Shown: one piece after another, positions 23,187 through 63,214 of the stretch
Layout of the letters: each line of letters opens with the position of its first letter
Position numbering within the stretch: position 1 is the first letter of the stretch
Source of the DNA: Azolla caroliniana
Lineage: Eukaryota > Plantae > Polypodiophyta
Assembly: GCA_043228905.1 (NCBI GenBank)
Contig: JBHGNT010000008.1
Coordinates: 15,252,001 to 15,316,000 of the forward strand
Direction: 5' to 3'
Length of the DNA: 64,000 nucleotides
Translations under genes and position numbers: made by a program
The notes under the pieces: generated by a model
Database searches by the model: none
What the model was told of the DNA's origin: nothing
Seen by the model: only the letters and a program-made list of their open reading frames with translations

Positions 23187-24219
23187 GAGCGGCATGTGAA
23201 CAAAGGAATCCTCGATGTTGTACATTCACATGTGTGGGGACCAGCCCAGACAACAACATTCAGCGGATACCGATACTATGTCATGTTCCTCGACGACTTC
23301 TTTAGGAACACCTGGATCTATCCGATGAAGCAGAAGAGTGAAGTGTTCAGGCACTTCTAGACATTCAAAGCTGAAGTTGAAAAAACTACGGGATGGCATG
23401 TACGTTGTCTTTGATCAGATGGGGGTAAAGAATATTTTCCGGATGAATTTTCGGCGTATCTTCAAAAAGAAGGAATCCGACAAGAGTTCTCCTATCGACA
23501 CATGCCTCAGCAAAACTTCATAGCAGAGCGTAAAAATCGCCATGTAGTAGAAGTCGCACGAGCCATGATGAACGAGAAGAACCTGTCGAAATCATATTGG
23601 ACAGAAGCGGCAAATATGGCCATATATCTCATGAACAGGTGCACAACCTCGGGAGTACATGATATAACTCCGCATGAGAAGTTCTTTGGAAAGAAGCCGG
23701 ACTTGTCACATGTCCACATTTTCGGTTCTATCGCCTACGTACATATTCCCGACGATACGCGGCAAAAGCTTCATCCAAAGTCGGAGAAATGTATCCTTGT
23801 AGGATACACACTCGAACACAAGGGGTACAAATGCTACAACCCATCTACCCGTAAGGTTCGAACAAGTCGAGACGTCGTCTTCGACGAATACGCATCCTGG
23901 TACGCACCAGAGAACACTTCGACTCCAACCCTGCCCAAAGCGGATGATATTGAAATAGAAAAAGAAGCTTAGGATCGGCTCACACAGATGTTAGAAGACA
24001 ACCCAATTATGACACGGCTGAGTGGACCATCAAAACCGCCGAGCGATGAAAGCACATCTCGGCTGAGTTCGAAGCTGGACAAAGGGAAGGCGAAAATGCG
24101 GGAATATGAAGAACAGGAAGAGACCGAGATGCTTCACTCTCTTGACAGTGAATTTGAAGATCTCGACATCCGCATAGATGGAGCGAAGAAAGCCATACTC
24201 CCCATGGATCGAGAGCTAC

Positions 24220-24248
24220 AACACCTTCGCGTTCACAAGTGGAAGGAT
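24220..24248 (+). repeat. Left terminal inverted repeat (29 bp)
   Basis: Reverse complement of 44030-44058 with 2 mismatches. Confidence 0.95.
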
Positions 24249-24569
24249 AAGGAAAATTTTGGTTGATTTTAGGGCTTTTTCAATGATTTTACAAAACACA
24301 TTGATACCAGTATCATACATGTTCAAACATACTATGAAAAAGGTTAAAATCCACTATTTCCGTGATTTAGAAGTAACTAAAAAAAAGAGGAATTTCAAAA
24401 AGTTACATTCTCAATTTATATCACAAATTTTACAACCAATGTTATTTTATAAGAAAAGATCTTTTAGAAATCATAAGAATTCAAAACACATGCTTTTATA
24501 TTACTCGATTTGTTACAAGCGGAATGTATTTACACTTAATAGCCAAAAATACATTCATGATCACTCCTT

Positions 24570-25324
24570 TACGGAGAATCACTACTATAACTAATATACA
24601 ATGACGATTCCTCCTCGTCATCCTCGGATGTACCAATCAGTGCATTATCTTCTCAATAAACCAAATGGTTTGACTCTAGATTATATGTAGCAGATCTCGT
24701 TTGCCTTTGACTAGAGCCACCTTGTGGACCTGGTAATTTTTCTTTTATTGTATCTATTCTTGACTTCCTTAATCGTCCGGCTTTTGTAAGTGTGAAGTCA
24801 TACACAAGGATATCGACATCAGAGATATCAAGGGTAGAGGTGTTACAAATGTTTCGCTTCCTCTTCCTACCTCCCCTTCTTGTTGGGCATTCAATCATCT
24901 CCAATGTATACTTACCTGTAAAAGCATTTGCACTTCTAGTGTTGTACCAATGAATGTTTATAGACTTGGTAGTGTTTTCCATTTCATGCATTAGCACTTC
25001 TAGAATTTTACCAACCCAAAATTGGTGGCCATGTGAATTCTCATCAGCCGGCGTTGCAATCAACATCCCCGTCGTGAGCTCTTGCAAATTGCCTTGCCAT
25101 CTAGCTTCGGCTGATTTGGTCATCCTTGGTCCCACATAAATGTCTCTTTGTTGTGGATGGACCAAACTGTCATTAATCGCATTTGCTGGTTGCTCCGAAG
25201 TTCTATTTACACGATCGTGTTGCGGCGACCATGTGAATGGCGTTTCCAAATTCCAATTATCACCAAATACACAATTGTCTATAATTCCTTTCTGATCACT
25301 ATAAAATACACCCTACCATGACGT
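24570..25324 (-). pseudogene. C-terminal part of the Sola-like transposase, split off by the Gypsy insertion
   Basis: Removing 25325-32613 joins ...AAKKYAAQQDT-SW*GVFYSDQ... in frame with ORF 24653-25249. Confidence 0.8.
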
Positions 25325-26121
25325 TGTCGTGCCTTTCGGCTCCGGATCGTTGCGTGAGTCGGGTGGGAACCACAGAGGTCTTGGACTAGGAGAAAGAAGT
25401 TCGTGAGATAGAGATTAATTATGAGTAAATAGCAAAGAGAAAGATAAGAAACTCGTGAATCACACGAGTATACTATATTAATTGGTACTTAGGGTGTTAA
25501 GAGAGAAGTAGATGTATAAATCGTGAATCCCACGAATAATTTTTGTATTGATTAATACTTAATCCAAATAATCAACAACCCTTTATATATTTCTCTCCTC
25601 CTTATATAAGGAAGGAAGAGCTAAGCATGGCTTCATGCTTTTTTTTTTTGTACAAAAAGTGTTCATGTCCACTAAATGTGCATGTGATGCTTTTTTATTT
25701 CCTAAGTATAGGGCTCATGCACGCTAGATGTGCATGAGTTATTTTTTAGTGTCTCGTGTTTTTTTTTTCTTTTTCATATATTAAAAAAATACACGATTTA
25801 CCTTTTAATAAAGGTATGCATAAATAAAGGTCTTATACGTATTAAATCTATATTTAAAACACTTAAGATAAGTTAATGTAATGGTAAGGTTGGGGTTTGT
25901 CAACGTGGAGGTGCATAGTTCGAATCATGCCCTGCGCAGTAGTGAGTATTTCCTTTTTTTTTTTTTACATTTATGTCTCTTTATCCGGCTCTTCCTTGCC
26001 GGTATGCCGTTTTCCTCCTTGCCGGTATGCCGTTTTCTTCCGGTTCTCACCGAGCACTCCATTCTCTATCCGGAGGGACAAAAATATAATTTCCACATAG
26101 TGTGCAACCTACACTACGACA
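25325..26121 (-). repeat. Gypsy 3' LTR
   Basis: Direct repeat with TGTCGT...ACGACA ends. Confidence 0.97.
25874..25938 (+). promoter_or_regulatory. tRNA-like A/B-box module in the Gypsy LTR (second copy at ~32338-32402)
   Basis: taatgtaatggtaag ... gaggtgca.agttcgaatca. Confidence 0.6.
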
Positions 26122-29100
26122 CTCGCCCCCTCCAAACCCGCACATCCTCCGGTATGTGCCGAAGTTCTTGATTCTTCGTATCCGTCTTCATCCGAAGCTT
26201 CCTCCGATTCTCCCCTTATGTCAACTATGAGTTGTAATCCACTTTCTTCGCTTCCCGCATCATTGTGGTCTTCGTTCGATTGCTCCTCGTTGTCGGCCTC
26301 GACTTGGATCACATAAGGTTTGTCGTCGGTCCGCTTCTTGAAAATCTTCACCCGCTTCCCGGCTATAGGCACTCGTAGTATTGTTCCATCCAACTCGGAC
26401 AGTCGGTACGTCCCGTTGTCGAAGACCTTCCGAACCTCGTACGGCCCGAACCACCTTTTCGCGAATTTCCGCATCGTTGTATGTTGATGGTCCAAGCTAC
26501 TATCATAGACGATCACCCAATCTCCTTCTTCAATCCTCCTCGGTCGTAGTCGGTGCTTTGTGTCGAACCGGCTTTTGTTCCGGAACCGTGCTTCTTGTTG
26601 TCGGCGTGACGCTTCCGCTACATCTTTCGGTCTTCCCTCCAGTTGTCGTATCCGGACCGCTAGTAGTTCTTCCCGGCTCATCTCTTCCTTCCACGGTAGT
26701 ATTGTCCATGTCGCGATTGCGGTTTCCGTTGGCATTACCGGTGCTTGTCCGGTCATGAGTTCTGCCGGCATGTAACCGGTCACGGAGCTATGCGTCGTCC
26801 GATCTGCCCATAATGCATACGGAAGCATTTGTGGCCAATCCTTCACCCTTCCGTCGCATGCCTTCACAAGTGCTTTCACGATCGGACTATGTCCTCGTTC
26901 GATCTTCCCGTTGGCCTCCGGATTGTAGGCCGTTGTCAACGTTAACCGAACTCCATGTTTGGCAAAGAATCCCCTAGCTTTGTCCGAGTCGAGTTCTCCC
27001 CGGTCCGCAATCACTTGTCCTACGCAGCCGTACCTACAAAACACTTCTTCCAAAAGAAATTGGCACACCGCGGCACACGTTTTCCTCCGAAGCGCTCGAC
27101 CTTCAACTTGGTTTGTGAGATCTTCTCGAGCTAACACCAAGTATTTCTTTTGTCCAATCCCGGTCGGCATAGCTACAATGTCGACCATCCACTTGAAGTT
27201 GATTGTCGGTGAGAATGTCGGATGCAGCTCATCTCGGTGTCGGACCCCGGAGTAGACTTGACATTTCTCGCAGCTTTCTGTGAACTCCGCGACATCTTTA
27301 TACATGTTCTTCCACCAATATCTTTGCTTGATTTTCACAAAAGTTGCCCATGTTCCTCGATGTCCAGCCCAATCGGATTCGTGGAACTCAGACATTATCC
27401 GGTTTCGTTGCTCTTTCGTCCCGACTACTCGAAGTGGTATCCCATCCGGTCTTTTCGGCGTCCTCCATATTAAACCGTTTTCCAAGAAGAACTTTTGGAC
27501 TTGCCTCTTCTTCCTTCGGATCTCGGCTCTCCTTTCTTTATCATTGGTTGAATCCTTGACCTCTTGTAGCATCTTCCCGATCATCAAGGTTTCCCCCTCG
27601 TATTCTTCTTCCCGGAATTCTCGGATCACGTTCACTCGGCATATGTGTTCTGACGTGAAGTAGTCTTCAGAAACTTCTTCATTATCTGATTCGGTTATGT
27701 CGTCTTCAAACCGCGCCCTCGATAACATGTCCGCTACCGCGTTGTCCTTCCCCGAGATGTGTCAAACCTCCGGATTAAGTGACTTGACATATGCAATCCA
27801 CCTTAGCATAGCCACATCCGGTATCGTACAACACCGCATCATCCCGAGTATCGGAAGACAATCCGTCTCGATAACCACTTCAGCTCCGATCAAATAATCC
27901 CGATCCGATTTTATCGCTGACACGACTCCCCACAATTCTCTTTTGACTTGTGCATATCCGCGTTGCCTTTCGTTGAGGACCTTTGCTCCAAATCGGATCG
28001 GATACCGCGAACCATCCGAGTCGGCTTGATTGATGACCCACCCGATACCGGTTGGACTTGTATCAACCGTTACTATGATTGGCCGCTCGTAGCTTGGCTT
28101 CTTAAGTGATTCCGCCCTCCATAGTGTCTTCTTGAGCTTCCTCATGGCTTTAGTGTGTTCCGGTTTCCACTCGAATTTCTTACCTTTCCGCAACAAGTGA
28201 TAGAGCGGGTCCGCTATATGTGCATAGTGCGGAATCCATATGTGATAGAATGCACACGCACCCAGAAACCTTCGGACTTCCGATGTTGACTCACATACTT
28301 CCTTCATAGCTTGAATCGCATCGATCTTTGTTGGTGACGGTCTTCGGCCGTAGGGTCCACATAGATGTCCGACCACCAATATTTCTTCTTGCCCGAATGC
28401 CGATTTCTCCCCGGAAAGTGTTAGGTGCACATCTTCTAGCTTTTGCAACACTTTCTCGCAATCATGAATATGGTCGACCACGAACTTTCGGCATCCCCGA
28501 TCATCCATAGTCTCATCTTTTTCTTCCACCGCGCATCCTTTCATCGGAATGTCATCTAGAAACGGCATCGTTATCTCCGGGATGCAATCTCGAAGCACCT
28601 TGTTCATCGCGTTCATCATATGTGCAACCGAGTTTGTCGCTCCTTGTGGTAGTGTGCACATTCGAACTAGTCCTATCGGTGTCCGCATGGTAGTGATGTC
28701 TCGGCTCTCCACGGCTAGTTGGAATTGGTCATACCCCGAGTATAGGTCCCCGATGGAGTATATCGCACGTCCGGCAAAAGCTTCCGCGAATTCGTCCACT
28801 ATCGGACCGACTCCCGAGTTCCGGATCGTGACCTTGTTCACCGGTTGCAAGTCTTGGATGAATCGGAGTGACCCATTCTTCTTCGGAACCGTAAACCATC
28901 GATTTGAGTACGGAGCACTTGATGGCTCTAGAATCCCCATTGCCACCTTCTCCTTGAGCAAGTCGATGACTTTCGGAATATGCGCCCGCGGCACCGGAAT
29001 CGGCTTCAGGTTCCACGGTACATGATCAATCGTGAAAATCACCATCGGCTCCACTATCTTTGGATCAATGCATCCGATCTCCCTCGATGTGAACGCGAAT

Positions 29101-29720
29101 GCTTTGCCATGTTGCTCCAACATCTCTCGAAACTGTTTTTCTTCTTCTTGTAAGAGGAACCCACCTCCACCGATCCGAAGTTTCTTCCGGGTCTCATCTG
29201 TGAAGGCATGTCCGATATCCACGGACTTCCGAAGTGTCGGATCTCCCGAGACTTCTTTCTTCTTTTGTTCGCTATCGGCGGGTAGTGGTCCCGCGGCCGG
29301 TTTCATCTTCTTCTCCACGGTCTTGTATTTCGTACTTACCACTGCTTCTTCTTTGCGGAGCGCATCCGGCCCCATTTTCGCAACGATCTCGTACATCTCG
29401 ACCGATTCCACCGGGACTACCCGGTTCCCTTGGCTTTTATCTTCCGCAAGCTCTTCAAGCCGTTGTAGTGTATTCCCATAGAACACTTCCTCGATCACTC
29501 CCACGATTTCTTCGTCTTCTTTTATTATTGATGCCGACCGTAACTTATCCTCCACTTGTCGGTATTGTTTCTTCATTCCTCCGGTTACGGCCGTGTACGT
29601 AGATGCCCCATCCGGGCCGATTCGTACTTGTTTTGCTCCGAGAGTTTTCTTCCTGTGTGGGGTATCAGGGCTTCTCGGACTATCACTTCCCCACTCCGCA
29701 ACAGTCCGCTTTAAAAATCC
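26109..29720 (-). pseudogene. pol: Gypsy pol (RT, RNase H, integrase); one in-frame TGA at 27762-27764
   Basis: DLYSGYDQF, PQGATNS, FLDD (RT); VDTS (RNase H); GHRG..CEKC, ADRGE, YNPEANGKIE, GPY (integrase). Confidence 0.95.
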
Positions 29721-31753
29721 ATTCTCACTTGGGACAAGAGTTCCCTCTTGTTCCTTTCGTGATTTGCTGGCACCGTTAGGAATTGGACGGATTTCCCTCC
29801 GTTTTGGCTCCGAATTCGCGCAAAAGCCGCACCACTATCGAGCACCTTCGTCTCCATCCGTGAAGCCGTGATAAAGGGTTGGCCGAGGATGACAGAATGT
29901 GAAACCTCATCCTGCACAAAGAAATTTTGGTCAATTTCGACATCCCCGATCTTTACCGTCACATCCGGACAAGCCGCAAATAGGTCTTCTGTCGTTTTCG
30001 TGGCTGCCCGAATCTTCCATCCATGGTTGGTGTTTATAGGCCACTTCCCCTTTCGGTAGAACTCCTTGGACATCAAGTTGATCTCCGATCCGTGATCAAT
30101 CAATGCTAGCACGGGTTCTTTGATGTCGCCGATTCGGACCGGAGTCTCCGTAGTCGCACGTGCCCAGTGTGGCCTTGTATAGTGGGAGTTCGGAATTTCG
30201 CCTTCCACTTCGGTGTCGTTCATTGAAACGGTATTTGCATTCACCCTTGGAGCATTTTCCTCCGTACTTTGTCTCTTCCTTTTTACGAGATCCACGAGAA
30301 GATCGTGAAACTCCTTCTTCGCTATTCCGAGTAGTTCCCGCAGCGAAAAATCTACCCGGCTATCCAAGATTCTTTCCTCGAACACTCTTTTCAAGTCGGT
30401 TTGTTGTTCTATGTCCGAGGTGAGCTTGAATGCCGGAGTCGCCTTTTCTTTTCCCTTACCTCCGGAGTTCCAGCTTTCCGGTATCTTCGATGGTCCGGCC
30501 GCATCCTCCGTGCACCGTCGTTTCTCGTCCACATACACCTCATGTAATTGACACAGGGCGTATATGCTATTCTTGTCGACAGGGCACTCCCATCCCGTAG
30601 CTTCCCGGACGCCTTCCGGGGTGTTTCGGATATCGTTGGAGTCGGTTTTCTCGGTGTTTCCTAGCACCTCCGGCCAGAAAGACTCCTTCGCTCCCGTTGA
30701 CTCCCCGACACATATTCCCGCGGTTGTCGCATAGTTGCTTCTTGCCGCTAACTCCTCCTCGAGCACCTTCTTCATGCCGCCTTTCCGGAAGTTCGGTCGG
30801 AGTGGCTTCCGGGAGTCCATCGAATGAATCCGGTTTCCCTCGTAGTAGATGAGATCCCGTCGTAGCGCCTCCTTATGGTCGTCGCAATCCCTTCGATCGT
30901 GTTCGGCGCTATCGCACCATATGCACCGTCGATCCGTATATTTGGAGCTTGTGGGGCGGTCATCCGACTTCTTCACCATCGCGATCTTTAGATTCTCCAT
31001 CTCCTTCAGCAGCTGCTCCACCGTAGACGCGTCGACTCCCTTCTCGGCCGTAATCTCCCGAGCCCTCGGTTGATGGTCTTCCAGTCCCGTTCTCGGTTTC
31101 GGAATCGGTTCCGAAACCCTCTTTTCTTCGTTGGAAAGCCATTGCCCCCTCTTCGTGTACCGCGCGACGATATCCCGCACGCTTTCCCATGTTTCGGTGA
31201 GGCCGCTTTCGGTGGTCGTGTCCTCAAGAAGCACTCCGAGATCTTTCCGGTCCCGGACGTCCACAGCTCGCAAAAACATGATGACTTTGTCCGGTGCAAG
31301 AATAGTTTGATCTCTCGCGGACAACCTCCCGAACCGACTTTCGAATGTCGAAAACACTTCGAGGACCTTCAGCCCCTTACCTGACGTTTCCACCCAATCC
31401 TCGAATCCCCTCCGCGTTGCCTTGGAGGAGTCCTCGATGGCAAACGTGGTCTTTAACGCCTTTTCGAATGCTTCCCACGTCGGATTTTGTTGTTGCAACC
31501 CGTGGATACTCCCTTGAAGCCCGTCAGTCGCCACCCGGTTAAAGGATGTCACTTGCAGTCCTTCCGAAGCCCGGCACCGGAGCATCTCCGCCTTGTAGTC
31601 CTGCAAATATCGCGACACATCCTTACCATTAAATTACCCGTTGCGTTGCACGAGCCGCTCTACTGATGCCGAAATCTCCGACATCGTGCGTTGTTCTTGA
31701 AGCATCCGTTCGAACATCGCCATCATATTGTTAGCTTGTTGAGCCTCCATCTC
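29711..31753 (-). pseudogene. gag: Gypsy gag-protease ORF; one in-frame TAA at 31634-31636
   Basis: Zinc knuckle CIWCDSAEHDRRDC; protease motifs LIDHGSEIN and ILGQPF. Confidence 0.93.
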
Positions 31754-31788
31754 CTTGCCACCTGTCTTCACGTCGGGTTCACCAACTG

Positions 31789-32609
31789 TGTCGTGCCTTT
31801 CGGCTCCGGATCGTTGCGTGAGTCGGGTGGGAACCACAGAGGTCTTGGACTAGGAGAAAGAAGTTCGTGAGATAGAGATTAATTATGAGTAAATAGCAAA
31901 GAGAAAGATAAGAAACTCGTGAATCACACGAGTATACTATATTAATTGGTACTTAGGGTGTTAAGAGAGAAGTAGATGTATAAATCGTGAATCCCACGAA
32001 TAATTTTTGTATTGATTAATACTTAATCCAAATAATCAACAACTCTTTATATATTTCTCTCCTCCTTATATAAGGAAGGAAGAGCTAAGCATGGCTTCAT
32101 GCTTTTTTTTTTTTTACAAAAAGTGTTCATGTCCACTAAATGTGCATGTGATGCTTTTTTATTTCCTAAGTATAGGGCTCATGCACGCTAGATGTGCATG
32201 AGTTATTTTTTAGTGTCTCGTGTTTTTTTTTTCTTTTTCATATATTAAAAAAATACACGATTTACCTTTTAATAAAGGTATGCATAAATAAAGGTCTTAT
32301 ACGTATTAAATCTATATTTAAAACACTTAAGATAAGTTAATGTAATGGTAAGGTTGGGGTTTGTCAACGTGGAGGTGCAGAGTTCGAATCACGCCTTGCG
32401 CAGTAGTGAGTATTTCCTTTTTTTTTTTTTTACATTTATGTCTCTTTATCCGGCTCTTCCTTGCCGGTATGTCGTTTTCTTCCTTGCCGGTATGCCGTTT
32501 TCCTCCTTGCCGGTATGCCGTTTTCTTCCGGTTCTCACCGAGCACTCCATTCTCTATCCGGAGGGACAAAAATATAATTTCCACATAGTGTGCAACCTAC
32601 ACTAGGACA
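31789..32609 (-). repeat. Gypsy 5' LTR
   Basis: Direct repeat of 25325-26121 with one extra ccggtatg unit. Confidence 0.97.
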
Positions 32610-34609
32610 ACGTGTCTTGTTGTGCGGCATATTTCTTGGCGGCCTCAATATGCTTTCTTTTTTCTTCTAAGGCTTGGAGCCATAACCATTTTTGTTCCGA
32701 TACCAAGTCACTCTACAACTGTCCTTTCTTCTCAATTGGCATTTGCTTAGCTCTATGGACAATTGTACTCGGCATACAAAGTAATAACTGGCAACCACCT
32801 TCAGGTTCCCATGTTGTAGAAGATGAATATTGTTTAGCATACAAAAGTGAAGAACCACTTATTTCATTTTTCTTTATCATAAAAATGTGATTGAAGCTTA
32901 TATTGTTTAACTGGGCAAGCACTTTAACATTCCCAACACCCCCATCTAATATATATCTCTTAAAGTTGTATACCTCCTTCAAGTGTAACACTTTTGGGTG
33001 TGGTGTATATGCATCACAAATGACATCAAATAGTTTAGGTAATGTGAAAGCATCATGCCGAGACAACTGTCTGGAAAATGTGCTAAATATCTGATCTATA
33101 TGATCATGTGGGTGGTCAACCAAAAGAAACTTTCCTAAACAATCCTTGGTTGCAGTTCAATTTTTGTTCTCTCTAGCAGTATTGTCCAATTGAACGTATA
33201 GAACAGGGGGGAAAGGTTGGCCCCAAGACATCAAAACTCAATGAATCATTGTAACTGTTAGGTTAGGGTCATTGTGAACATTAGGGTATGTAATGAAGAC
33301 GTGAGCTCCAACAGACCTATTATAAGCTAAGCATCCCACCAAGTGCATTTGAACAAGGCACTCATCATTGACGTCTTTGGGGAGCCTCCGCATATGCGGC
33401 AAGCAAGTCTTCTTCTGGTCCATGCCATCTATCATTAAGCACATGTATTGTTCGAGCCTCTTCAAACACTTCTCTCTATGATGCATCGCCTTCTTTCGTT
33501 CTAACGATTGTGCCTCACGATGCTCTTGTAGTAACTTCTTACTCATATCCTTTTCCATTGATGTCTTTGCACCTTTAGCCAAACTTTTAAGATTTGCACA
33601 AATGGAGCAATACCCCATGTGTAGTTTACGTGGAATGATAACATTTGAAAACCGAGCTCTCCATAATCTTCTGAATTGGCTATATGTGACAGACTTATTA
33701 CATGAGCCCACCATATCAGATTGATAGACATCATAATCTTCCCGACGTGTGTAATTATCAGAAAGGTGCATCCTACCTGTAGTGGGCATTAGTTCACAAT
33801 TTAACTGAAAGTAAGTTTTCATCCAACCAATAGCATGTCTTCCAATTGCACCTTTCATACTTGGAACCTCTTTACAATTGAGCATCTGATCCCCGCTAAG
33901 TAGACGTTGTTGTATTCTATATAGCCACATGTTACTAACACATAACGCAAATTTGAATGCAACTATACATATTTGTTGCACATGGAAGATATAATACTTG
34001 AATGATACTTTGATCCCCGTACATTTGTCAGACACTAGTTGCATATGTGACCTGAGGTAAGTGTCTTACTCATCACCAGTCATTGAAAAATAGTATCGCC
34101 TTAATTCTCGGAACTTTGATTTTCCAATCATAGACATACAACCACGAGCACAACATATTTTATTGACACCAAATCCAATTTGTTTATCTGATGTCACCAA
34201 GTTAAATCTAGCCAGACGAATTCTTCGTGGGATTCTTCTAATATGCATAGGGCTTCCAGATTTCTCTTCCTACATAGAAGTTGGTGTAACCTTGTTACTA
34301 TCCAATTCTTTGTTGTGACCATCGCCGATGATATTCAATGTTTCATTGGCACTACCTTCATTCTCTGTATCTTTATTAATATCGTATTCTTCAATAGAGA
34401 ACTCTTCACTTGTGTCATTATTCACATTTGTTGTAGGTGAAGATGAGCTCAGACAATACTCTTCGATAGAATATAGTGCGTCTGTCGACAGACAATATTC
34501 TTCAATAGAAAAATGGTGAGTCTGTTGACAAACAATATTCTTCGGTAGAAAACGAAGAGTCTGATGACAAACAATATTCTTCAATCAAGAACGGTGAATC
34601 TTCACTCAT
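32610..34609 (-). pseudogene. Sola-like (DUF7869-type) transposase, N-terminal and catalytic part, disrupted
   Basis: Motifs CSIC..H, CLMIDGMDQ, LYVQLDNTARENKN (33161-33202) and FLLVDHPHDHIDQIFS (compare FLxVGHTHxDIDQxFS). Probable ATG at 34609. Contains stops, frameshifts and a short deletion. The family assignment is from motif recall. Confidence 0.8.
34445..34600 (-). repeat. 39-bp coding tandem repeat (SIEEYCLSTDSPF-like, x4) in the transposase N-terminus
   Basis: Repeated acaatattcttc units with a ~39-bp period. Confidence 0.85.
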
Positions 34610-35417
34610 GGCTTAAGGTCTAGACAGAGCTCTTTAAGTTATGTGCTTAGGCTAAGGCAAAAAACTAATAAGCTCCTCTCTAAACATATACTCCTCTCAA
34701 AACATAAACTCTTCTCAAAACATAAACTCCTCTCTAAACAGAAGCTCCCTCAATATAATGTCTATAATATTTAATATTATATTAATACAATACATAAAAA
34801 AAAATAATTTTATTATAGTAATTGTATTTGACATATTACTAATTACTTAAACTAGTCTATATGAAGTTAAATCCAGTATAATATAATTACAATCATTACC
34901 AAGCCATATATATGTTAGATTAAAGTTAAAATCATTGGTTAATTAATGGCACCCATATTTAATATAGAACTTCTCAGTCATTGGTTCATTCATGCCCACA
35001 TCTTTAATACAAAGCAATTAAGAGTCATAAAAATGTTGATTTCAGTAATCAATCATTGGTTCATTCATGAACCTCTATCATTGTTTCCTTCATGACCTTC
35101 AAAGTCATTGTAAGTTATTTTGACTATAAAATATTCAACAATATGTTAGTTTGACTTTGTAATCATTAATGCAATCATAAGTTACTCAAGTTAATGTGAC
35201 TGTGGTTACTAACTAACTAACCTCACGGTTGCCAACCCTGGTTAAGCTGATTGTGGTTACTTTAACTAATGTGGTCAATCCCTATAAATAGGAAGACCCT
35301 ATCATATTTCACTCACACGAAACAGAAGAGCACACAAGAGCACACAGAGCAAACAGAGCACACAAAGCACGAAGTACGATTGCGAGATCTCCGCCTAATA
35401 ATCGACAAATATCAACC
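34610..35417. promoter_or_regulatory. AT-rich divergent promoter region between the two transposon genes; TATA box at ~35283
   Basis: cctataaata at 35281-35290, ~135 bp upstream of ATG 35418. Short aaacataaactc repeats at 34680-34745. Confidence 0.55.
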
Positions 35418-35501
35418 ATGTCTTCAAAGAAAATCGAGTGCCAGGACTCCAAGTAAGCCTCTGACATTGTGGACATTTTTGTAAATATGTTTTAGCATCA
35501 A

Positions 35502-35730
35502 GAACTTGATACGCCGTATCGAGTTCCTGTATAAAATACAAACAATATACATGAACGCGATACGGCATATCGAGTTCTTGTGTGATGTTTAGGTTTTATA
35601 CAGAAACTCGATACGGCGTATCGAGTTCCTCTTTAAAGTTTTTGATTTAAACATGAACTCGATATGCCATATTGAGTTCCTCTATTTCGTTTGTGTTTTA
35701 AACAGGACCTCGATACGGCGTATCGAGTCC
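35502..35730. repeat. Array of five 25-bp palindromes (GAACTCGATACGnCGTATCGAGTTC) with an exact 51-bp period, in intron 1
   Basis: Units start at 35502, 35553, 35604, 35655 and 35706, separated by 26-bp AT-rich spacers. Confidence 0.92.
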
Positions 35731-38700
35731 CTGTATAAAACAAGAACTTGAAAGAGGAATATTTTGTCTTTGGGGCAACAACTTAGTATTGTGTGAAAAT
35801 ATATCAAACTCTCTGTCAAAATCAGTCTTTTTTTAGGGTGATTTGCCTTATTTTGTAAAAAATAGGGGCCTTAATTATAGAGGTTTTATGACCTAGTATA
35901 GCTTAAAATAGTACAAATTACCCACAAATTACCTTTACGATACCAAATTCAAGTCTATCATATGCAAATTCTCTACAATATGGATATGGAATCAATGTAA
36001 GCCATGCCTGCCATTCAAGACAATATATATCCTTGTATACTTATTAAGATATATATTTTCTAAGTTGAATAGCCCTTACTAGAATAGATTTCTGAATATA
36101 GAACTACCATGTACACTCAATGCATGATTGATATTTATAGTTTGCCACAAATTGTCTGCTAGTTTATTTCTTCATCTAATTATTTGTATTTTAATATACA
36201 ATCTTAATCTACGTGACCACCTAACTTATGTTTTCTCATGTCCTTTCTTAAATAGGTCATTTGAGAACTTGTCGGACCGGCCTATGAAGAAGATAAAGCT
36301 CCGCATACAGGGTTCTCCAATTGAAACACAGACCCTAGTAGCTCTAGAGACCATGAAGAGAGGAAAAAAGCTTCTCTTCAACGAGGAGACAAAATCTCAA
36401 TCACACATTGAGGTTAGCCAAAAGAAAGTAGTAGTAGCTACTGGAGGTGAAGACCTTCCTAACCGTGATCTAACGGACAAGGAATGGTGTATGCAATACG
36501 TCGACACCATGAAAAAAGTCGTATTCTATACAACAAAGGAGAAGGGCGAGGGGCAGCTTAAAAATGAAACCCCATTTATGTATGACCGTATTCTACGATT
36601 TGACTACGAAGATGTAGATTCAGCAAATATACTTGTAATGATAGAGTGCTCTAAGGGGGTACATAAAGTGTTCCTTTCATAAGATCTTCTAGTAAAGGAA
36701 TCTTGTGGGCCAGAAGCTTTCAAAAAAGATCTTGAAAGCTCACAAAACCGTATTGTTACCTTGAGGCCTTATATACAAGGCCATGTAACTCTAAGGGAGC
36801 CATTGCCCTCCCTAGTGAAGGCCACAAAAAGGGCATCTAAAGTACAATCAAGACCACCAAAATGTCGAACTCCGACTCATCAAGTGAAAACGAAGATGAG
36901 GACACTAACGGGACGCTAGGAGCTGAGGTGGCATTGGGTGTCTTGTCATCCGAGCAGAATAAGATACGAAGAGAGTTAATGCAACGTAAATTGGTCGAGA
37001 AAGGGCAAATGTTTAATTTGCCTATAACACACATCCATCGGACCCCTATTGATGAAAAAACAAGACGAAGACCACTGGAGATTAGAGAACCACACCGCAT
37101 GGATGTTCAAAATCTCAAGAAAAAAATGAAAATTAATCCTCATGCCACTGTGGTGCCTTTTATTGTTATGGTGGATCCTGAAGAATGTGAAACCATTGAA
37201 GATTCTGATATAAGAAAGCATGATCAATATAATTACTTTGTCATTGGTAGATCGCATTCAGCGGACGCACGTTGGCAACTTGTGAGAGAACATCTAACGA
37301 CTTTCTTCTTCAAGTATGCAGAGTGCAAAATTTACATGGGTCTCACAACTGAAGAGGCAAAGTTATTGGCATGGGACCACAATAGGCAGAAAATGTCGTC
37401 GACTGAGTGTATACGGTTCTTCCACCACGAGTATTTGGATGTCAAACAAAAGTTTGGTGTGAAGCTACATCCAGGCCTACGACGTCAATGCTTGCATGAA
37501 GTCGGCATTGTGGTAGATGATAATGTTAAGTCCGATGGTCTTCGAAAGTATGAGTCTTGGTTTCAACTGGCCCTTAGAGATGGAGAAGTATGGGACCTAC
37601 AGGATCAAATCTTCTCAATGTGGGAGAATAAGAAGGTCAAGGGTCAACGACAAAAAAAATGTAAAGTTGACCCTCAACTAGAATTAAAGCCACAAGCGGC
37701 CAAGAAAATTGACTTGACAATTGAAGAAGCGGTTGACGACATGAAGTTGTCTTTGTGGAGAGCGATGCAAGGTATTAAGGACGAGCAACTTCTTGTGTTT
37801 GTTTTGTCAAGGGTTGTGGTCAAATATTTAAGCATTGAAGAAATGGTCACTGAGTTCAATAAGTAAGTCTTTCAAATACTGATATTGAAGACTATATGGT
37901 GCAATTCAAAGTTCTAATCTCGTTTTCTAATTTCACAATCATAAGGTGTACATGAAGATCCAAGAAGTTATGATGAAACAACTTGGATGTATAACTTGGG
38001 AACAAGTGACTGAGGATTATTCTCTAACGTCTTCATATAAGGCATTATCAGAGTATTTTATTGCATTCAAGGATTGGGTTAGTATTGGTGGTTTTTCATT
38101 ACGCTTTCATCATATGTAGAGCTTGTATAATAAAACTCGATGTCCTATTGCTTCTATTAGAAACCGTGTCGTGGGAAGAAACAAGGAGAAGTTAAGGATA
38201 TACACGATTTCCCGACATCCTTCATTGCACATCTCGAGAGAGCTAGAAAAGAAAAGGATCATCACTTAGTCAAGGTGTATGAAATGGAGGAAGATGGCTC
38301 CTTTAAAAAATTTAGCCACAAAAAAGATATTACGAGAGATCTTTACTACAATGTGGTTTGTGGCGATGTCGTTGACATGATCCAAACGGTGCCAAAGAAG
38401 GAATATACGCTGTCGCGAAGATTCGCGCGTGCGTGTGCTACTCGAGCGACCACCGGGGTCTTGGACTGGGGAGGACGTTCGCGGAATTATCGACGCTAGA
38501 TGACGATCAATGTAAGATTAAATGAAAATCGTTTACTTGAGAAGAAGAAAAATTGAACACTTGAGAAGTAGAAAAACATGAAGATTATAAAGACAAATAT
38601 AATTTATATTGATGATAATGGTGTTGGTGATATCACATATTGAGCCCCCCTTACACAAGCCCAACTAGAGGCTTTTATAGGTCTTTCCATGCTCGTGACA

Positions 38701-38865
38701 TGCACATAACCATGGGCTAAAACCATGGTTTTGTGCACACGGTTTTGCTTATGTCATGCACAAACCATGGGTTTAAAACCATGGTTTTGTGCACATGGTT
38801 TTCTATGGTTGTTTCGTCTATAATTTGTATATCAAAAGGAAATACATACAATCTACACTATATGA

Positions 38866-38934
38866 TAGTTGTCCTAGTGGTAAGGCAATTATCTTGTATG
38901 GTAGAGGTGCAAGGTTCAATCCTTGCTTGCACCC
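38866..38934 (+). promoter_or_regulatory. tRNA-like A/B-box module in the non-autonomous LTR (second copy at ~41742-41810)
   Basis: gtcctagtggtaagg ... gaggt gcaagg-ttcaat-ccttgc. Confidence 0.65.
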
Positions 38935-39145
38935 CTCTGTATGAACTCAAGTGCCACTAGGCTAGGTTTATTTGCTAAGTGCATGTGCAATGTTGCACAT
39001 CCTTGGTTTATTCGTCTCACTCGGTTTCACACCGTAGCCGAAAATCGTCACGACATCCACCCCCACCAAACCCGCACATCCTCCGGTATGTGCCGAGAAA
39101 GGTGAAGAGGTGAGATCTTTGGCAACGGTGATCAACCGAGTTCCT

Positions 39146-41242
39146 CTACACGCTCGTCGACTTCGTCTTCCACTTCGAGTATGCGCAATTTTTCCAACCG
39201 AACCACCGTAGCCACCCGATCCACCATATCCGGCGCTCACACCTTCTTCCCCGATCGGTTGTAGTAGATCTACCGAACGATGTCGTCGATACGACCGCTC
39301 TTCCTTCGTCCACCGCGCGTGTCCTTCGATTGGACTCCTGGCCACTCCTCACGCTCACCGTCTTCAACTGGGTATTGTAGATCGTTCGTGTCGATCTCCG
39401 ATTAGGCCGGGTTTGCCCTTGTCCGGATCGGTCTCCACCGATCGCTTCTTGGCTTGGTTGGCCTTCGTCTGCATTCACATTTCCCCGAGTCGGGCTCGAC
39501 CGATTGATTCTGGTTGGGTCGGCCCCCTTTTGGATCGGAATCGTTCGATCGATTTTCGCCGAATCAGGTTTCCGCCGGGTCGGCCCCGGTCGATCGGCTC
39601 CCATGTGGATCTTCCTTCGTTCGGGTCGGAATCCCGGCCGGATCATCTTCCGGTTCAACCGGTTCTCGACTCTTCCTTCCTTCCCGCATGCAACCTCTCC
39701 ATTGAACTCAACCGCAGCTTCATCCTTGGCCTCCACGTCGGCCATATCCTTCCCTCCGTGTATGCTCGCCTCGAGCCATATTGTCTCGTCTTCGCCACCT
39801 CCTTTATCTTCGGTCTTATGTCGACACACGGTCTCGACTACCGAAGTCTCCGGAACCAGTGTGAAGGAATCCCTTCGCTCATGCACATTTACCTTGTCTT
39901 CTTCATCGCCCTTCCGGTCGTCCTCTTTTTTGTCCACACATTCTGTCTCTCCGGTCTCACGTTGGCGCACGTGCACAACCGCCGAAGTCTCTAGAATAGG
40001 TGTGGGGATATCCTTTCTTCCTCGATCTTCTTCCTCTTTGTGTTGTGCCTTTGTCTTCCCTTCACCACCTTCCGTCTCTCCGGTCTCACGTTGGCACACG
40101 GGTGCAACCGCCGAAGTCTCTGGAACAATCGTGGAGAAAGTCTTGACATGGCTATCCGTTGTCGACTCGTCCATAGCCACCTCCGACTCGATGTCGTTTG
40201 TCATGGCTACCTCCTCAATCTCTTCAGACTCAAACACTTTTCCTCCCTCGATCATGCAAGCTTTTCTCATGCTTGCGCCGTCATCACCCGATGTTTCGTA
40301 CACAATGCGTGTTCCAAAACATTTATCCTCCCTCGAAGTGGCGTTCGCCGTCCTCGAGTCATCGGCCTCCTCCTTCGCCGTCGTTTCTTTGTAAGACAAG
40401 AAGGTGACTTGTTTCACACCTTCTCTCTCGGTACCGTCATACCGAACCAGAGCCTTTGTATCGGCCACTTCATTAACCTGCATTTGTTGGGAGGTCTCTT
40501 CTTCCTCGATCACCATTCGCCTCGGTTTTGTCTCCCTTCTAAGCTTCATTTCTTTTGTTGGTGGTGCGTTGTTGCATCTCGTCCCTCTTCGATCGTCCCT
40601 CATGGGCCGTCTTGTTGTCGTTGATATTCTCGCTTGCCCCTTATCGTGTAGTCGGCATACACTTTCCACTTTGCTCCAATCCTCGGTGAGGCCATTTGCA
40701 CCATCATCTTCTTCGAGTTTGAGGCCGATCGCCATCCTTTCCATTCGATCGATTGACTTCACGAACATAAGGACCTTATCGACCCCCACCAATCTTTGTT
40801 CCCGCTCCGACAATTGAGAAAAATGATGCTCGAAGTCTACGAATGCTTGTGTCGCACCTTGGTGGGTCTTCGCTGATGTCACCCATTCATCGAAGTTGCG
40901 TCGATCTTGTCCCTTCAGTCTCTCATAGCCATATTCCTCCAATAGAGCCTTCTCGAAAGTCGCCCACGAATCATGAGCTTCTAGAAGCTCTGTTACATCT
41001 TTGAAGATCGGTTGAGACACCACCCGACAAAAGTACTCTAGCCTCATAGCTTTGTCCACACCTCTTGAATCCATCTCCGCATTGTAGACTTTTAGGAAAC
41101 TTTGGACTTCGGCACCGTTGAAATAGCTCATTCGTTCGACTACTTTGTCGACGGCTTGTTGGGCTTCATTTCTTCTTTTCTCTTCTCTCAGAAACTCCAT
41201 CATCCTTCTTGACATTGCCTCCATGAGATATTCGACATCCAT
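39146..41242 (-). CDS. gag: Gag-derived protein with an acidic repetitive middle and a basic tail (698 aa, intact)
   Basis: FNGAEVQSFLKVYNAEM..FDEWV..DKVLMFVKSID..GLTEDW aligns with the gag of 29711-31753 (FNGKDVSRYLQDYKAEM..FEDWV..DKVIMFLRAVD..GLTETW). Confidence 0.88.
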   Translation of the reverse strand: MDVEYLMEAMSRRMMEFLREEKRRNEAQQAVDKVVERMSYFNGAEVQSFLKVYNAEMDSRGVDKAMRLEYFCRVVSQPIFKDVTELLEAHDSWATFEKALLEEYGYERLKGQDRRNFDEWVTSAKTHQGATQAFVDFEHHFSQLSEREQRLVGVDKVLMFVKSIDRMERMAIGLKLEEDDGANGLTEDWSKVESVCRLHDKGQARISTTTRRPMRDDRRGTRCNNAPPTKEMKLRRETKPRRMVIEEEETSQQMQVNEVADTKALVRYDGTEREGVKQVTFLSYKETTAKEEADDSRTANATSREDKCFGTRIVYETSGDDGASMRKACMIEGGKVFESEEIEEVAMTNDIESEVAMDESTTDSHVKTFSTIVPETSAVAPVCQRETGETEGGEGKTKAQHKEEEDRGRKDIPTPILETSAVVHVRQRETGETECVDKKEDDRKGDEEDKVNVHERRDSFTLVPETSVVETVCRHKTEDKGGGEDETIWLEASIHGGKDMADVEAKDEAAVEFNGEVACGKEGRVENRLNRKMIRPGFRPERRKIHMGADRPGPTRRKPDSAKIDRTIPIQKGADPTRINRSSPTRGNVNADEGQPSQEAIGGDRSGQGQTRPNRRSTRTIYNTQLKTVSVRSGQESNRRTRAVDEGRAVVSTTSFGRSTTTDRGRRCERRIWWIGWLRWFGWKNCAYSKWKTKSTSV

Positions 41243-43438
41243 CTTCGTCCTCCCCTACTGCTCTTCACGTCGGGTTCACCAAATGATGTCGCGAAGATTC
41301 GCGCGTGCGTGTGCTACTCGAGCGACCACCGGGGTCTTGGACTGGGGAGGACGTTCGCGGAATTATCGACGCTAGATGACGATCAATGTAAGATTAAATG
41401 AAAATCGTTTACTTGAGAAGAAGAAAAATTGAACACTTGAGAAGTAGAAAAACATGAAGATTATAAAGACAAATATAATTTATATTGATGATAATGGTGT
41501 TGGTGATATCACATATTGAGCCCCCCTTACACAAGCCCAACTAGAGGCTTTTATAGGTCTTTCCATGCTCGTGACATGCACATAACCATGGGCTAAAACC
41601 ATGGTTTTGTGCACACGGTTTTGCTTATGTCATGCACAAACCATGGGTTTAAAACCATGGTTTTGTGCACATGGTTTTCTATGGTTGTTTCGTCTATAAT
41701 TTGTATATCAAAAGGAAATACATACAATCTACACTATATGATAGTTGTCCTAGTGGTAAGGCAATTATCTTGTATGGTAGAGGTGCAAGGTTCAATCCTT
41801 GCTTGCACCCCTCTGTATGAACTCAAGTGCCACTAGGCTAGGTTTATTTGCTAAGTGCATGTGCAATGTTGCACATCCTTGGTTTATTCGTCTCACTCGG
41901 TTTCACACCGTAGCCGAAAATCGTCACGACATCGCTAATGATTGCGGATATTCCTTATGGATTTTGAATGGCTGGGTCATCATACGATGATGAACCGTTT
42001 AAGTTTAAATAGTTGGAGAAGATAGTCAAGGATTTTGCTGAGCTAACAATTGTATCCTTGTGGAGAATAGTTATCTTTCATAGTATGGACCAAGGGTACT
42101 CAGTAGCTCAAGCTTTGAGATCTCGTTGCCATGGCATCGAGAACCTTGCATGGTAAGGATTATTTATAGGTCTCATTCACTATATTGCATTTCTTAAGAT
42201 TGTTCAATTTATTCTTAACTCAATGTATTATTTTTTATAGGATTAAAACCAATGTAAATAGAGGGCCAACCTTTTGGTTCGTTAATGCCATTGAATACAT
42301 CACGATTGGCTACTTTAATGAAATTAAGAAACAAAGAATCAAGGAGCATTCTAATGAAGTGGGAGGTTCAAATCTGCTGGTATATCCAGCAGTGACACGG
42401 AAATTGCGACATGTCACCACGACAGAACGGGGACTTGTCAACCCATACCAAAAACCTCAACGACTTATGATGCGCTTGATCGAGATGTTTTCTATCAAAG
42501 GAGACTAGATATTAGATCTCTTTTCTAGCACAGGTATTTGTCGAACTAGGGTAACGATCTTAAGATAAACAATACCGAATCTTTTTTGTTTGAGAACTAA
42601 TTCTTCTTGTTACTTTCTTCATAGGAACGACGTCTGCATGTGCATTGAAGCTCTTTAGAAACACAGTTGCATTGGAGAAGGACGAGGAGGAGGTTATATT
42701 TATAAACATGAGGATTAAGCCTTTGTGGGAGTGCCCAGACCACGATGAGGAGGTTGGTGCAAAGAACCTCGATGATACAGAAAGGTTTCAACCTGCTTCG
42801 CGAGAGCCTATTCCTCCGTTAGCCGGGGAACTAGGGGAGCTAATAGGGCTTGATGATGAGCTTATAGAAGATATTTCGCTAGCTCGGCTAACAGGGGAAG
42901 CCAATGCACGTATAGTCGAAGAGACTTCTACACAGGATGATGAAGAAAATGACAATTTGATGAATTGATTGCTATGTAATAGACTCTATGAAGAAAATGA
43001 CATTGACGATATGTTTGGATTTCACATTATTAATACAAATTTTGGGTTTTACTTTGTGGATTCTATTCTTTATAATCTTCTATATGTTTCAATTTTATTT
43101 TTATATACTTGGTTAGTAGACTTATGACATTGGTTTCACCGCGTGCATAGCTGATTACCAAATTTATGGAGAAACATGAATTAGTTTAAATTGAGGCTGA
43201 TTTTGGTCCAAGTTTACCTTAACATAACATGGTCGTAGAATTGTTGCCATGATTGTCCATGTTGTTATTATGGATCTTTGTCTTCTGTTGTTAAAACTAT
43301 TATGTTTCTATTCCATTGCTGCTTAGATTGTGTAGTGTGTTGATAATGGTTCCACTAGCGTTATCCACATGTTTTTACACGCTTGTAGTTCCACTAATGT
43401 TATCGTTCGGAGTTTGATTCTGTGTGAATCACCTAACC

Positions 43439-43688
43439 AATAGAGTAGATCAATTTTTAATACAAGTATGAAAGCCTTAATAGGTTTGTTATTTCCACCA
43501 CATTATCCTAAAGTTCATTGTCTTACATTGTCCACAATTATATACATATGGTTTGATCCCATACGAACAAACTAAAGAATAGATTAGATCAACTTTAAAT
43601 ACAAGTATTGAATACTTTAATAAGTTAGTTATTCCAATCACATTATCCTAAAGTGCACTATCCTACATTGTCCACAATTATATACATG
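43439..43688. repeat. Two-copy ~110-bp direct repeat (~140-bp period) in the transposon's right subterminal region
   Basis: tagatcaa..aatacaagtat..cacattatcctaaagt..tacattgtccacaattatatacat occurs twice. Confidence 0.85.
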
Positions 43689-44029
43689 CACGTATGGGTC
43701 AAAGTAAAAATTATAACTCATTTTATTAGTATGGATACAAGTACACCTCATATTTTTGTAAAACATACCAAATTAATATAAGTCTTTAACTTAGTGTTTC
43801 CCATGTCGCACATTATTGAGCCATTGTTGAACTTTTTTATGCCTACATAAACTTATCAACACGTCCAAACTTGCATGATTTCTAATGATCTCCACTTGTA
43901 GACCTATCATGTATTTTTATATTTGCAAATTCTAATCCAGTTGTGGAACATATGATACTAGTGCATCCAATTTTTGTAGAGAGGGTGTATTTGGATAGTT
44001 TCAAGAAGATTCTACAAGTGGAATGCGCA

Positions 44030-44058
44030 ATCCTTCCACTTGTGAACGTGAACGTGTT
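44030..44058 (-). repeat. Right terminal inverted repeat (29 bp)
   Basis: Matches the left TIR and is followed by the CTAC TSD. Confidence 0.95.
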
Positions 44059-44174
44059 CTACGCCGATCCACACGTGAAAAGAACCTTGTAAACTGCTAC
44101 AGCTACGATGAGTACATGACGTATCACTACGGGAACCGGAAACGCTTTCCGAAGCTCCAAAAGATCCGTGATGG

Positions 44175-54500: not shown

Positions 54501-54777
54501 GTAGAACTTGGGCAAGCATTGCCCGTGCCTCTTCCACAATCGACCGATTTTTCCTATTGGCCACGCCGTTTTGCGCTAGCGTGTATCTACAACTGAATTC
54601 GCGCCGAATTCCTATCTGTTGTAGATAACCGTTGAATTGATCGGAAAAGTATTCTTTTCCGCCATCCGACCGTAGGCACCTGAGCTTTCTTCCTGTTTCC
54701 GTTTCCACGAACCCTTTGAGGTCCCGGAAACAGTCGAAGACTTCGCTCTTCCTCTCAATGAGGTAGATCCACATGTG
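51558..54777 (-). mobile_element. Copia copy D (related family): 3' half with 3' LTR ~51558-51998, interrupted by a Gypsy at 54778
   Basis: Integrase SDGGKEY, RT YVDD (with an internal deletion), RNase H, and a PPT next to tctcaaca at 51998. Confidence 0.9.
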
Positions 54778-55210
54778 TGTTAACTCTTCGGGCCGGACAA
54801 TGGCCTAACACAGGGTGTCTACGTGAGACACTTCACCAAAGGGTGTTACGGCAACCGGATTAGACTTCAACGCTTAATCCGACTTAGTTAAGTTACTTAT
54901 TAGGATCGTCTTCATAACACGCGTAAGATATAACAATTAAGACAGAACGGCAATTGACACAGAGATATAACAACGCTTAAGCTTTCATTAAGTAACCGCT
55001 AACTATTACAATGTATCTGGGCCTTTAAATAGGTTTCCGGTCTGTATTACAAAATGGTGCCATCCGCACCTGTTTGGGATCGGTCCGGATCCGGAATGGC
55101 ATACTGATTCCGGTCCGTCCGTCCACACTCATAGCTTAATTACAACCACATTCCTACTACTTAACTAGCTCTCCGTTTCCCACTCTGGACTCCTTTGCCG
55201 GCCGGTAACA
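54778..55210 (-). repeat. Gypsy LTR (3' LTR relative to the ORFs)
   Basis: Terminal TGTTA/TAACA. On the minus strand, TATA cctatttaaagg is followed by aatgaaag and a GT-rich tract. Confidence 0.85.
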
Positions 55211-55289
55211 CATGGCACGCCCGTGGGACAGTACCTTGTACGTCGAATCCACAACCGTCCCTTGCTATTCTTCATCTAAAATGTCCAAA

Positions 55290-58252: not shown

Positions 58253-58400
58253 GTCGCGTACTTAAAATAGCATTATGTCCTGTGGTGGCGCTTTAAATGC
58301 CCACTACGCACCTTTTCGCTCCACGCTCTTTCATCCATTTATTCCTCGCTTTTGCATGATTGTTTTTTTTTTTCCTGTTATTATTATTATTACTGTGACA

Positions 58401-62848: not shown

Positions 62849-63214
62849 TGGGCATTGGTTACTATAATGGCCTTCCTGTCTGCAGTAGTAGCAGTAGGCT
62901 TTCCGGGTATTGCTAGATTCGGCATTGTCTGTTGTACCCGGGGTAGGTCCTACGGTACGCGCGGGGTTTTGTACCGGTTGGCTACTTGGAGCGTCTTGTT
63001 CCGGATCCCGGGGGTAGTCGCCTTTTTTAAAATGCCGTTTTTTGTTAAAGTTGTTCTTATTACGGTACTCTTGATGGGGTTGCCCGTCATATCGGCCGTA
63101 TTCCTCCCGTTGCTGACGATACCCGAGGGAGTGCTCCCGGTCGTACTGTTCGTATCGTCTATTGTAATCCTGGTGCCGATCATGCCGGTCATAGTTATCT
63201 CGCCGATCACCGTA

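Follow-up and report, generated by a model that had tools for sequence, protein, structure and literature searches.

What does a plant DNA transposon do with a DNA methyltransferase of bacterial type? The question is raised by an element of Azolla caroliniana that lies in a stretch of 64,000 nucleotides (assembly GCA_043228905.1, contig JBHGNT010000008.1, positions 15,252,001 to 15,316,000), hereafter the window. A sequence-only reading of the window had described a transposon with two divergent genes, a transposase and a six-exon gene for a prokaryote-type amino-methyltransferase (MTase), and had suggested that the element may mark its own DNA. We find that the element comes from a Sola1-like, multi-family cut-and-paste transposon of fern-like plants, of which it is a decayed copy, and that its second gene, as judged from sequence and predicted fold, encodes a beta-class amino-MTase domain joined to a predicted ParB fold. 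On balance, we favour the view that this fusion protein binds an array of palindromes in the first intron of its own gene and methylates the DNA of its own element, most probably at adenine.

The element and its transposase gene occupy the following positions of the window.

24220–44058, no strand: whole DNA transposon, defined by its terminal inverted repeats (TIRs), target-site duplication (TSD), empty sites and length without nested elements
24220–24248, plus strand: left TIR with an AACAC terminus, which recurs in related loci
44030–44058, minus strand: right TIR, identical to the left TIR at 27 of 29 bases
24575–34609, minus strand: broken transposase gene (DUF7869), split by a nested Gypsy element; start codon inferred

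The 4-bp TSD CTAC is present at 24216–24219 and 44059–44062. Empty sites confirm these boundaries: a paralogous Copia at 45205–45406 runs across the insertion point with a single CTAC, and contigs from all four DNA sequencing runs pass from 24215 straight to 44059, where the two sides have 4 letters in common. Once two nested long terminal repeat (LTR) elements are removed, the element measures 9,025 bp. The TIRs, the CTAC duplication, the empty Copia site and the length of about 9.0 kb given by the sequence-only reading are all borne out, as is its divergent gene pair, the members of which match DUF7869 and N6_N4_Mtase, respectively.

The second gene, with a promoter element and an array of sites in its first intron, is laid out as follows.

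35280–35291, plus strand: TATA-like box; the first palindrome lies 223 bp downstream
35418–35452, plus strand: putative exon 1, 11 codons (MSSKK...), with look-alikes after the TATA box in related loci
35503–35729, no strand: five 23-bp palindromes (AAVTCGATRC-NNN-GYATCGABTT), spaced 51 bp apart within intron 1, which form an array of candidate parS-like sites
36256–37862, plus strand: exon 2, with N-terminal domain, predicted ParB-fold domain and helical domain; stop at 36680, frameshift near 36850–36862
37939–38077, plus strand: exon 3; the preceding acceptor (37937–37938) reads AA, compared with AG in the 8 related loci displayed
38161–38410, plus strand: first part of exon 4, ending CGD...KKEY
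41936–42152, plus strand: second part of exon 4, with catalytic motif IV (DIPY) at 41947; stops at 41965 and 42010
42241–42533, plus strand: exon 5, with motif X (NPYQKP), the start of S-adenosylmethionine-binding motif I and the Pfam N6_N4_Mtase match; stop at 42506
42625–42968, plus strand: exon 6, with the end of motif I (GTT), acidic motif II (LEKD) and an acidic tail

The GT and AG sites of exons 2–6 fall at equivalent positions in the 8 related contigs displayed, with offsets from tblastn-trimmed ends at two edges in L026 and one in L046. Among the rows listed from three sequencing runs of guessed or unknown kind, no joint across the predicted introns was seen, which carries no weight either way. 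The predicted order of domains is an N-terminal domain, which has no significant PDB or Pfam match, then the ParB fold, the helical domain, the beta-class MTase and the acidic tail; the sequence-only reading had described the MTase part correctly and had overlooked both the ParB-fold domain and the palindromes. The window copy is dead. Besides 8 stops in the transposase gene (relative to an intact relative), the second gene is interrupted by 4 stops, one frameshift and an LTR-element insertion and has lost an acceptor; the stops and insertions had been recognized before, the frameshift at 36850–36862 and the loss of the acceptor at 37937–37938 had not.

Several comparisons point to a beta-class amino-MTase. 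The piece encoded by exon 5 alone exceeds the Pfam cut-off for N6_N4_Mtase (27.8 compared with 26.7 bits), and the Ginkgo relative reaches 65.7 bits. All motifs quoted by the sequence-only reading are found in the same order, with motif IV ahead of S-adenosylmethionine-binding motif I, and the predicted fold is permuted accordingly. In a PDB search with a profile of 84 family members, beta-class N6-methyladenine (6mA) enzymes lead (M1.HpyAVI at 3.5e-19, RsrI, MboIIA and CcrM), and the rotifer enzyme N4CMT (8.6e-7) and PvuII (0.005) rank lower. The predicted structure of P0027, a complete distant relative, has a predicted local distance difference test (pLDDT) score of 82 and matches CcrM at E 1e-12. 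An MTase fold had been named beforehand as the match to look for in the reconstructed protein, and it is what Pfam, the PDB profile and the predicted fold of this relative all indicate.

Motif IV bears on the likely product. Compared with the canonical (D/N/S)PP(Y/F/W), the DIPY of the window gene keeps the Asp, the second Pro and the Tyr and has the first Pro replaced. All plant-clade members with a readable motif begin it with Asp and none with Ser; the SPPY that marks the eukaryotic N4-methylcytosine (4mC) enzymes DN4MT1 and N4CMT is therefore not found. N4-cytosine enzymes mostly carry SPPY and bacterial N6-adenine enzymes DPPY (PMC8885841; here and below, statements on published work refer to the portions of the cited papers available to us), and Marchantia DN4MT1 has TSPPY (bioRxiv 10.1101/2021.02.12.428880). 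Because motif IV starts with Asp, the product is probably 6mA rather than 4mC, which narrows the 6mA or 4mC mark envisaged earlier and leads away from the SPPY-type 4mC of Marchantia and rotifers. In a FastTree phylogeny of 36 rows, from which 7 proteins that the motif pattern failed to cut were dropped and which was built without DN4MT1, N4CMT and the Ectocarpus protein discussed below, the plant sequences group apart from 10 prokaryotic domains, and no donor can be named. Among distant relatives, P0047, P0142 and P0114 have a canonical DPPY; in P0047 and P0142 the complete fusion is encoded, and their place in the tree is intermediate between the plant clade and the prokaryotic domains. The ParB-like and MTase layout with a degenerate motif IV is seen in P0186 (from the sea cucumber Holothuria leucospilota), P0118 and P0133, and in P0104 a SAM domain is joined to part of the helical region.

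The assignment of the exon-2 region to the ParB fold is a structural prediction. The region was modelled from the related locus L008 (pLDDT 87), and Foldseek returned four matches under E 1e-3, all ParB or Noc, at E 6.7e-6 to 1e-4. In VIA, PadC ranks first (Z 8.9, root-mean-square deviation (rmsd) 3.1, 99 aligned residues), followed by a pNOB8-like ParB (Z 8.7, rmsd 4.8, 210 aligned) and KorB (Z 8.0, rmsd 12.8). By sequence, the region has no ParB match in Pfam, PHROG or NCBIfam and matched no prokaryotic protein; ESM Atlas gave DUF3723 (0.96) and ParB_N (0.92), which we treat as leads only. A single match in a bacterial genome, 39 residues at a contig end of a metagenome-assembled genome, is most likely plant DNA in the bin. 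No relative was found in viral contigs, and phage records matched the MTase part alone, at 23–29% identity among the matches listed (25 of 574).

To place the window copy, metagenome contigs were scanned with a relative of exon 2 as the query, which confirmed 143 stretches; the related loci described here are the best 80 of these. Upstream of the ParB region, 12 loci extend for more than 3.4 kb, and all 12 carry a divergent transposase; the shorter locus L074 shows the transposase start. Five loci have TIRs at both ends (L008, in which the contig begins within the left TIR, L023, L026, L046 and L058), and their termini begin with AACAC wherever the end is present. No matching TSD was found at L026, L046 and L058, which may reflect collapsed repeats. 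Identities of the transposase and of the ParB region rise and fall together over 14 elements (Spearman 0.81, pairs not being independent); the corresponding trees disagree on the position of L079, and only part of each is resolved (3 of its 11 branches are starred).

In these relatives the second gene is kept intact. Where exons 2–6 were all found (37 loci), 31 loci are free of stops, 36 have DIPY and 35 have NPYQKP. The ratio of non-synonymous to synonymous substitution rates (dN/dS) was estimated for the 210 pairs of 21 selected loci. Its median over unsaturated pairs is 0.038 in the MTase (22 pairs) and 0.047 in the ParB region (9 pairs), compared with 0.25 in the N-terminal region (19 pairs); the MTase and the ParB region are under strong purifying selection. 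Named relatives occur in Ceratopteris, which are the closest, Adiantum nelumboides, Ginkgo, Riccia sorocarpa and Chara braunii. The Riccia genes R1sor_010795 (DUF7869) and R1sor_010796 (MTase fusion) bear consecutive locus tags, on contigs of equal length, and with adjacency read from these tags the two-gene layout is probably present in Riccia as well.

The palindromes of intron 1 are the candidate target of the ParB-like part. In the window they start at 35503, 35554, 35605, 35656 and 35707, five being seen compared with 0.05 expected by chance. A similar TATA-like box is found in 13 of 16 related loci, and array sites are found in 16 of 17 loci with more than 1.7 kb of upstream sequence, with up to 15 sites per locus; the great majority, 207 of 220, fall in the 2.6 kb that precede the ParB region. 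The arms of the palindrome are conserved and the three central bases variable. Spacings between sites cluster at 31–33, 39–43, 49–54, 63, 71–73 and 84–85 bp. For 72 de-duplicated spacings (26 loci and the window), a 10.3-bp phase gives a mean cosine of 0.68, a value reached by 0 of 10,000 random sets, although this figure is not a strict probability because the loci are related. Phasing at 10.3 bp is the trace expected of a dimeric protein that contacts the helix from a single side. Two TCGA/CG sites are present in every palindrome; over four elements neither TCGA nor GATC is consistently enriched or depleted. Viral contigs contain four single palindromes and no arrays.

Two further motifs recur among the related loci. 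About 20–30 bp after the exon-1 donor, a conserved motif, CTGTACGGAC, is present in 8 of the 10 loci displayed (L001, L008, L023, L026, L028, L029, L033 and L036), is absent from L045 and L046, and is degenerate in the window at about 35460–35478. A single subterminal palindrome, TTGATAC-NN-GTATCAA, lies at 24301–24316 of the window and about 100–110 bp inside the left TIR of L008, L009, L023, L026, L029, L036, L058 and L079; it resembles the core of the array with a 2-bp spacer and is a possible transposase or ParB site.

The transposase itself matches DUF7869 at E 2.3e-34 (Pfam) and has a C..C cluster, DGMDQ at 33429, QLDN and a degenerate GHTH..D motif; three acidic motifs are kept in 64 of 79 homologues. 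Elements of the Sola superfamily have 4-bp TSDs (PMC3627910, PMC12477816), and TIRs with a 4-bp TSD are found here in the window copy (CTAC) and in L023 (TGTT). In a by-eye comparison with part of the Sola2 alignment of PMC3627910, the motifs of the transposase differ from those of Sola2. Membership in Sola1 is likely. The C-terminal end of the transposase (24656–25156, minus strand) holds a conserved beta-rich domain, FW[IV][GA]K...VHWY, which by eye looks like a chromatin-reader barrel and has no significant PDB or Pfam match.

How might such a fusion serve the element? Dimers would bind the 23-bp sites on one helix face, and the MTase held there would deposit 6mA in cis near the promoters that the two genes share. 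Through this mark, or by being bound, the protein would maintain the two genes and the element in a state fit for transposition; a regulatory effect on the genes is probable as well. Since the array would direct the protein to its target, copies with an array would be the ones affected, much as the VANC anti-silencing proteins of Vandal elements act sequence-specifically. A bolder version is tentative and, in our estimate, doubtful: in seed-free plants, Ginkgo and Chara, the fusion would load at the array in the style of parS/ParB, spread and write 6mA, a system of 'load and write'. If this were true, a bacterial-type DNA mark would exist in land plants, confined to one transposon lineage, where it would shield the element from silencing, having travelled with the transposase across streptophytes.

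Several observations weigh against binding and methylation in cis. Activity of the MTase is uncertain because motif IV is DIPY rather than DPPY, is variable at its second position in the plant clade (I, A, V, F or L) and is degenerate in some relatives, which have DLPR or no recognizable motif IV. The match of the helical domain to the DNA-binding domains of ParB, KorB and SopB is weak (Z 4–5 in VIA). An arginine patch, GxxR, binds cytidine triphosphate (CTP) in the ParB consensus; the corresponding motif here is GGSHS, or GG(S/C/N/G)H(S/T) in the alignment rows displayed, and CTP-dependent clamping may be lost because the GxxR arginine is missing. The array could instead bind the transposase or a host factor. 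Because the loci were found via the ParB gene, they show that the gene accompanies the transposase, but not that all related transposons carry it; moreover, high-coverage contigs are collapsed repeats, and L001–L004 and L010–L012 are near-duplicates. Finally, a role purely against 5-methylcytosine (5mC), as in the earlier suggestion that the element counters 5mC silencing, is weakened because the brown alga Ectocarpus, in which 5mC is negligible, has an element of the same design, for which self-modification has been proposed (PMC12477816).

The same evidence can be arranged in other ways. The array-bound protein might serve mainly to repress or time the divergent promoters, and methylation might hold down the expression of the transposase or its binding to the ends, much as dam methylation is said to do for IS10 and Tn5. 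We regard such self-restraint as unlikely. It fits the position of the array in intron 1, 130–350 bp downstream of the TATA box, the presence of KorB, which is a repressor of the ParB family, among the best structural matches, and the occurrence of the design in Ectocarpus with its negligible 5mC; pure repression, however, needs no MTase kept at a dN/dS of 0.04. Self-restraint is nevertheless compatible with the binding and methylation that we favour and does not exclude them. It is improbable that the MTase is inactive on DNA or directed to RNA and that the protein acts as a DNA-binding cofactor that bridges or organizes the element for transposition. The non-canonical DIPY and the degenerate motifs of some relatives would fit this idea, as would the switch of several eukaryotic amino-MTases to RNA and the presumed inactivity of those borne by DIRS1 (PMC4738411), but diverged subfamilies have kept the catalytic Asp and Tyr as well as NPYQKP, DLFSGTG and LEKD, and the domain is fused to a predicted DNA-binding fold beside a DNA array.

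Methylation at N4 of cytosine, for example on the CG of the TCGA in the array, could directly block or mask 5mC. The two TCGA/CG sites per palindrome would provide targets, 4mC and 6mA enzymes cannot be told apart by their beta-class folds, and N4CMT matches the P0027 model at E 3e-9; set against the Asp-type motif IV of the plant clade, with SPPY in most N4-cytosine enzymes and TSPPY in DN4MT1, we hold this to be highly improbable. There is virtually no chance that the window copy picked up a host gene in a single, Pack-type event. Although the gene has introns, such a capture, which the sequence-only reading had named as one outcome that would speak against it, is refuted because the layout recurs in all 12 long loci, from diverged subfamilies, and probably in Riccia, because TIR-bounded relatives carry the gene and because the two genes co-diverge; the gene is a regular cargo of the element. 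Binding of the array by the fusion and methylation in cis remain the account that we prefer.

The nested elements and the surroundings of the copy complete the picture of the locus.

25325–32609, minus strand: nested Gypsy LTR retrotransposon with TSD ACGT and LTRs at 25325–26121 and 31789–32609
38411–41931, plus strand: second nested LTR element; its two 645-bp LTRs are identical, it has a 702-amino-acid open reading frame (ORF) and it lies in exon 4 just before catalytic motif IV

The Gypsy element interrupts the transposase gene, its LTRs differ by 6 substitutions in 797 aligned columns, and contigs from 3 of 4 DNA runs skip it. The second element has the TSD ACGC/TCGC and is skipped in contigs of 2 of 4 DNA runs; its identical LTRs mark it as very recent. 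The 702-amino-acid ORF has no match in Pfam, and neither a reverse transcriptase nor an integrase match was found in it; the element is probably non-autonomous. The TSDs, LTR pairs and skipping contigs agree with the two nested insertions recognized earlier. Outside the transposon, 1–24219 and 44063–64000 of the window contain nested, related Copia-like LTR elements in both orientations, with pairs 70–91% identical. The 4-mers that flank 28 ends of related elements are AT-rich with no fixed motif. At 3 of 27 TIR flanks of at least 50 bp (L003:3280, L024:4040 and L043:3960), the flank matches genes of related elements; these copies thus sit inside other elements of the same group, which may reflect abundance, assembly chimaeras or a targeting bias.

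The pairing of transposase and MTase, which the sequence-only reading could not confirm as undescribed, is already in print: Sola1-1_Ec32 of Ectocarpus, published in 2025, has a 4-bp TSD, AACCG termini and a gene of 1,104 amino acids for a ParB-like and N4/N6 MTase protein opposite the transposase, and similar proteins are cited for green and red algae (PMC12477816). By that description, the window element shares with it the TIRs, the 4-bp TSD, the AAC- termini (AACAC in the window) and the fusion on the strand opposite the transposase. In contrast, the Ectocarpus element, from a brown alga, has a length of 21.5 kb and imperfect TIRs of 282 bp, compared with 6–9 kb and about 30 bp in plants, and the plant elements have the array, whereas the main text of PMC12477816 makes no mention of a palindrome array. 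The Plavaka (EnSpm) elements of the red alga Bostrychia provide a second parallel (bioRxiv 10.1101/2025.02.11.637652): their PAG2 and PAG3 genes include a transposon-borne N6-adenine methylase (PF01555) and a ParB-like domain, with adjacent tandem inverted repeats proposed as binding sites beside the ParB gene. They belong to another superfamily, however, and the MTase-SET and ParB-2OG oxygenase proteins are encoded by two genes.

Other comparisons are more distant. With the bacterial beta-class N6-adenine MTases (M1.HpyAVI, RsrI, MboIIA, CcrM and M.BceJIV), the domain shares the motif order IV, X, I, II and the predicted fold, and with phage MTases of ParB-terminase loci the ParB association (PMC4738411); it differs from both in its 15–29% identity, its introns, DIPY and a eukaryotic transposon as carrier. 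The predicted ParB/Srx fold followed by a helical domain, and repeated palindromes near the gene, recall the ParB/parS, Noc and KorB systems, whereas the absence of ParA, the GGSHS in place of the GxxR patch and the MTase fusion set the plant protein apart. Marchantia DN4MT1 and bdelloid N4CMT are likewise beta-class amino-MTases of bacterial origin in eukaryotes (PMC8885841); unlike the fusion, they are host genes with SPPY that make 4mC and have no ParB domain, and the portions of the papers available do not describe them as transposon cargo. VANC of Vandal elements and the TET/JBP proteins of fungal transposons are also accessory proteins that act on the epigenetic state of an element (PMC12973397, PMC12730594), but they are unrelated and counter or oxidize 5mC, whereas the fusion would add an amino-methyl mark. 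The group-1 enzymes listed in the available part of PMC4738411 include no clade of this kind; the same paper ascribes few N6-adenine MTases to land plants, and MTases are reported in viral Mariner elements (PMC3627910).

The literature covered held no description of such an element from a land plant; Repbase Reports, subscription papers, bioRxiv supplements (including Bostrychia Table 6) and Iyer 2011 lay outside this coverage, and a description may exist there. For green algal cases, Iyer 2011 is said to be the work cited. Relative to the algal papers, which propose self-modification only, the streptophyte range, the selection on the enzyme and the helically phased candidate site are new. Because reading frames are intact in relatives and a 23-bp candidate site is defined, the idea of self-marking can be tested directly. 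Within this coverage, the 4mC enzyme of Marchantia is the only bacterial-type enzyme described from land plants, and a multi-copy transposon family with an enzyme under strong purifying selection in ferns, Ginkgo, a liverwort and Chara is a concrete possible source of 6mA (or 4mC). If the fusion does bind and mark its own element, transposons would have a new way to mark themselves, and the fusion would be a naturally occurring DNA writer that is directed by sequence and functional in plant chromatin.

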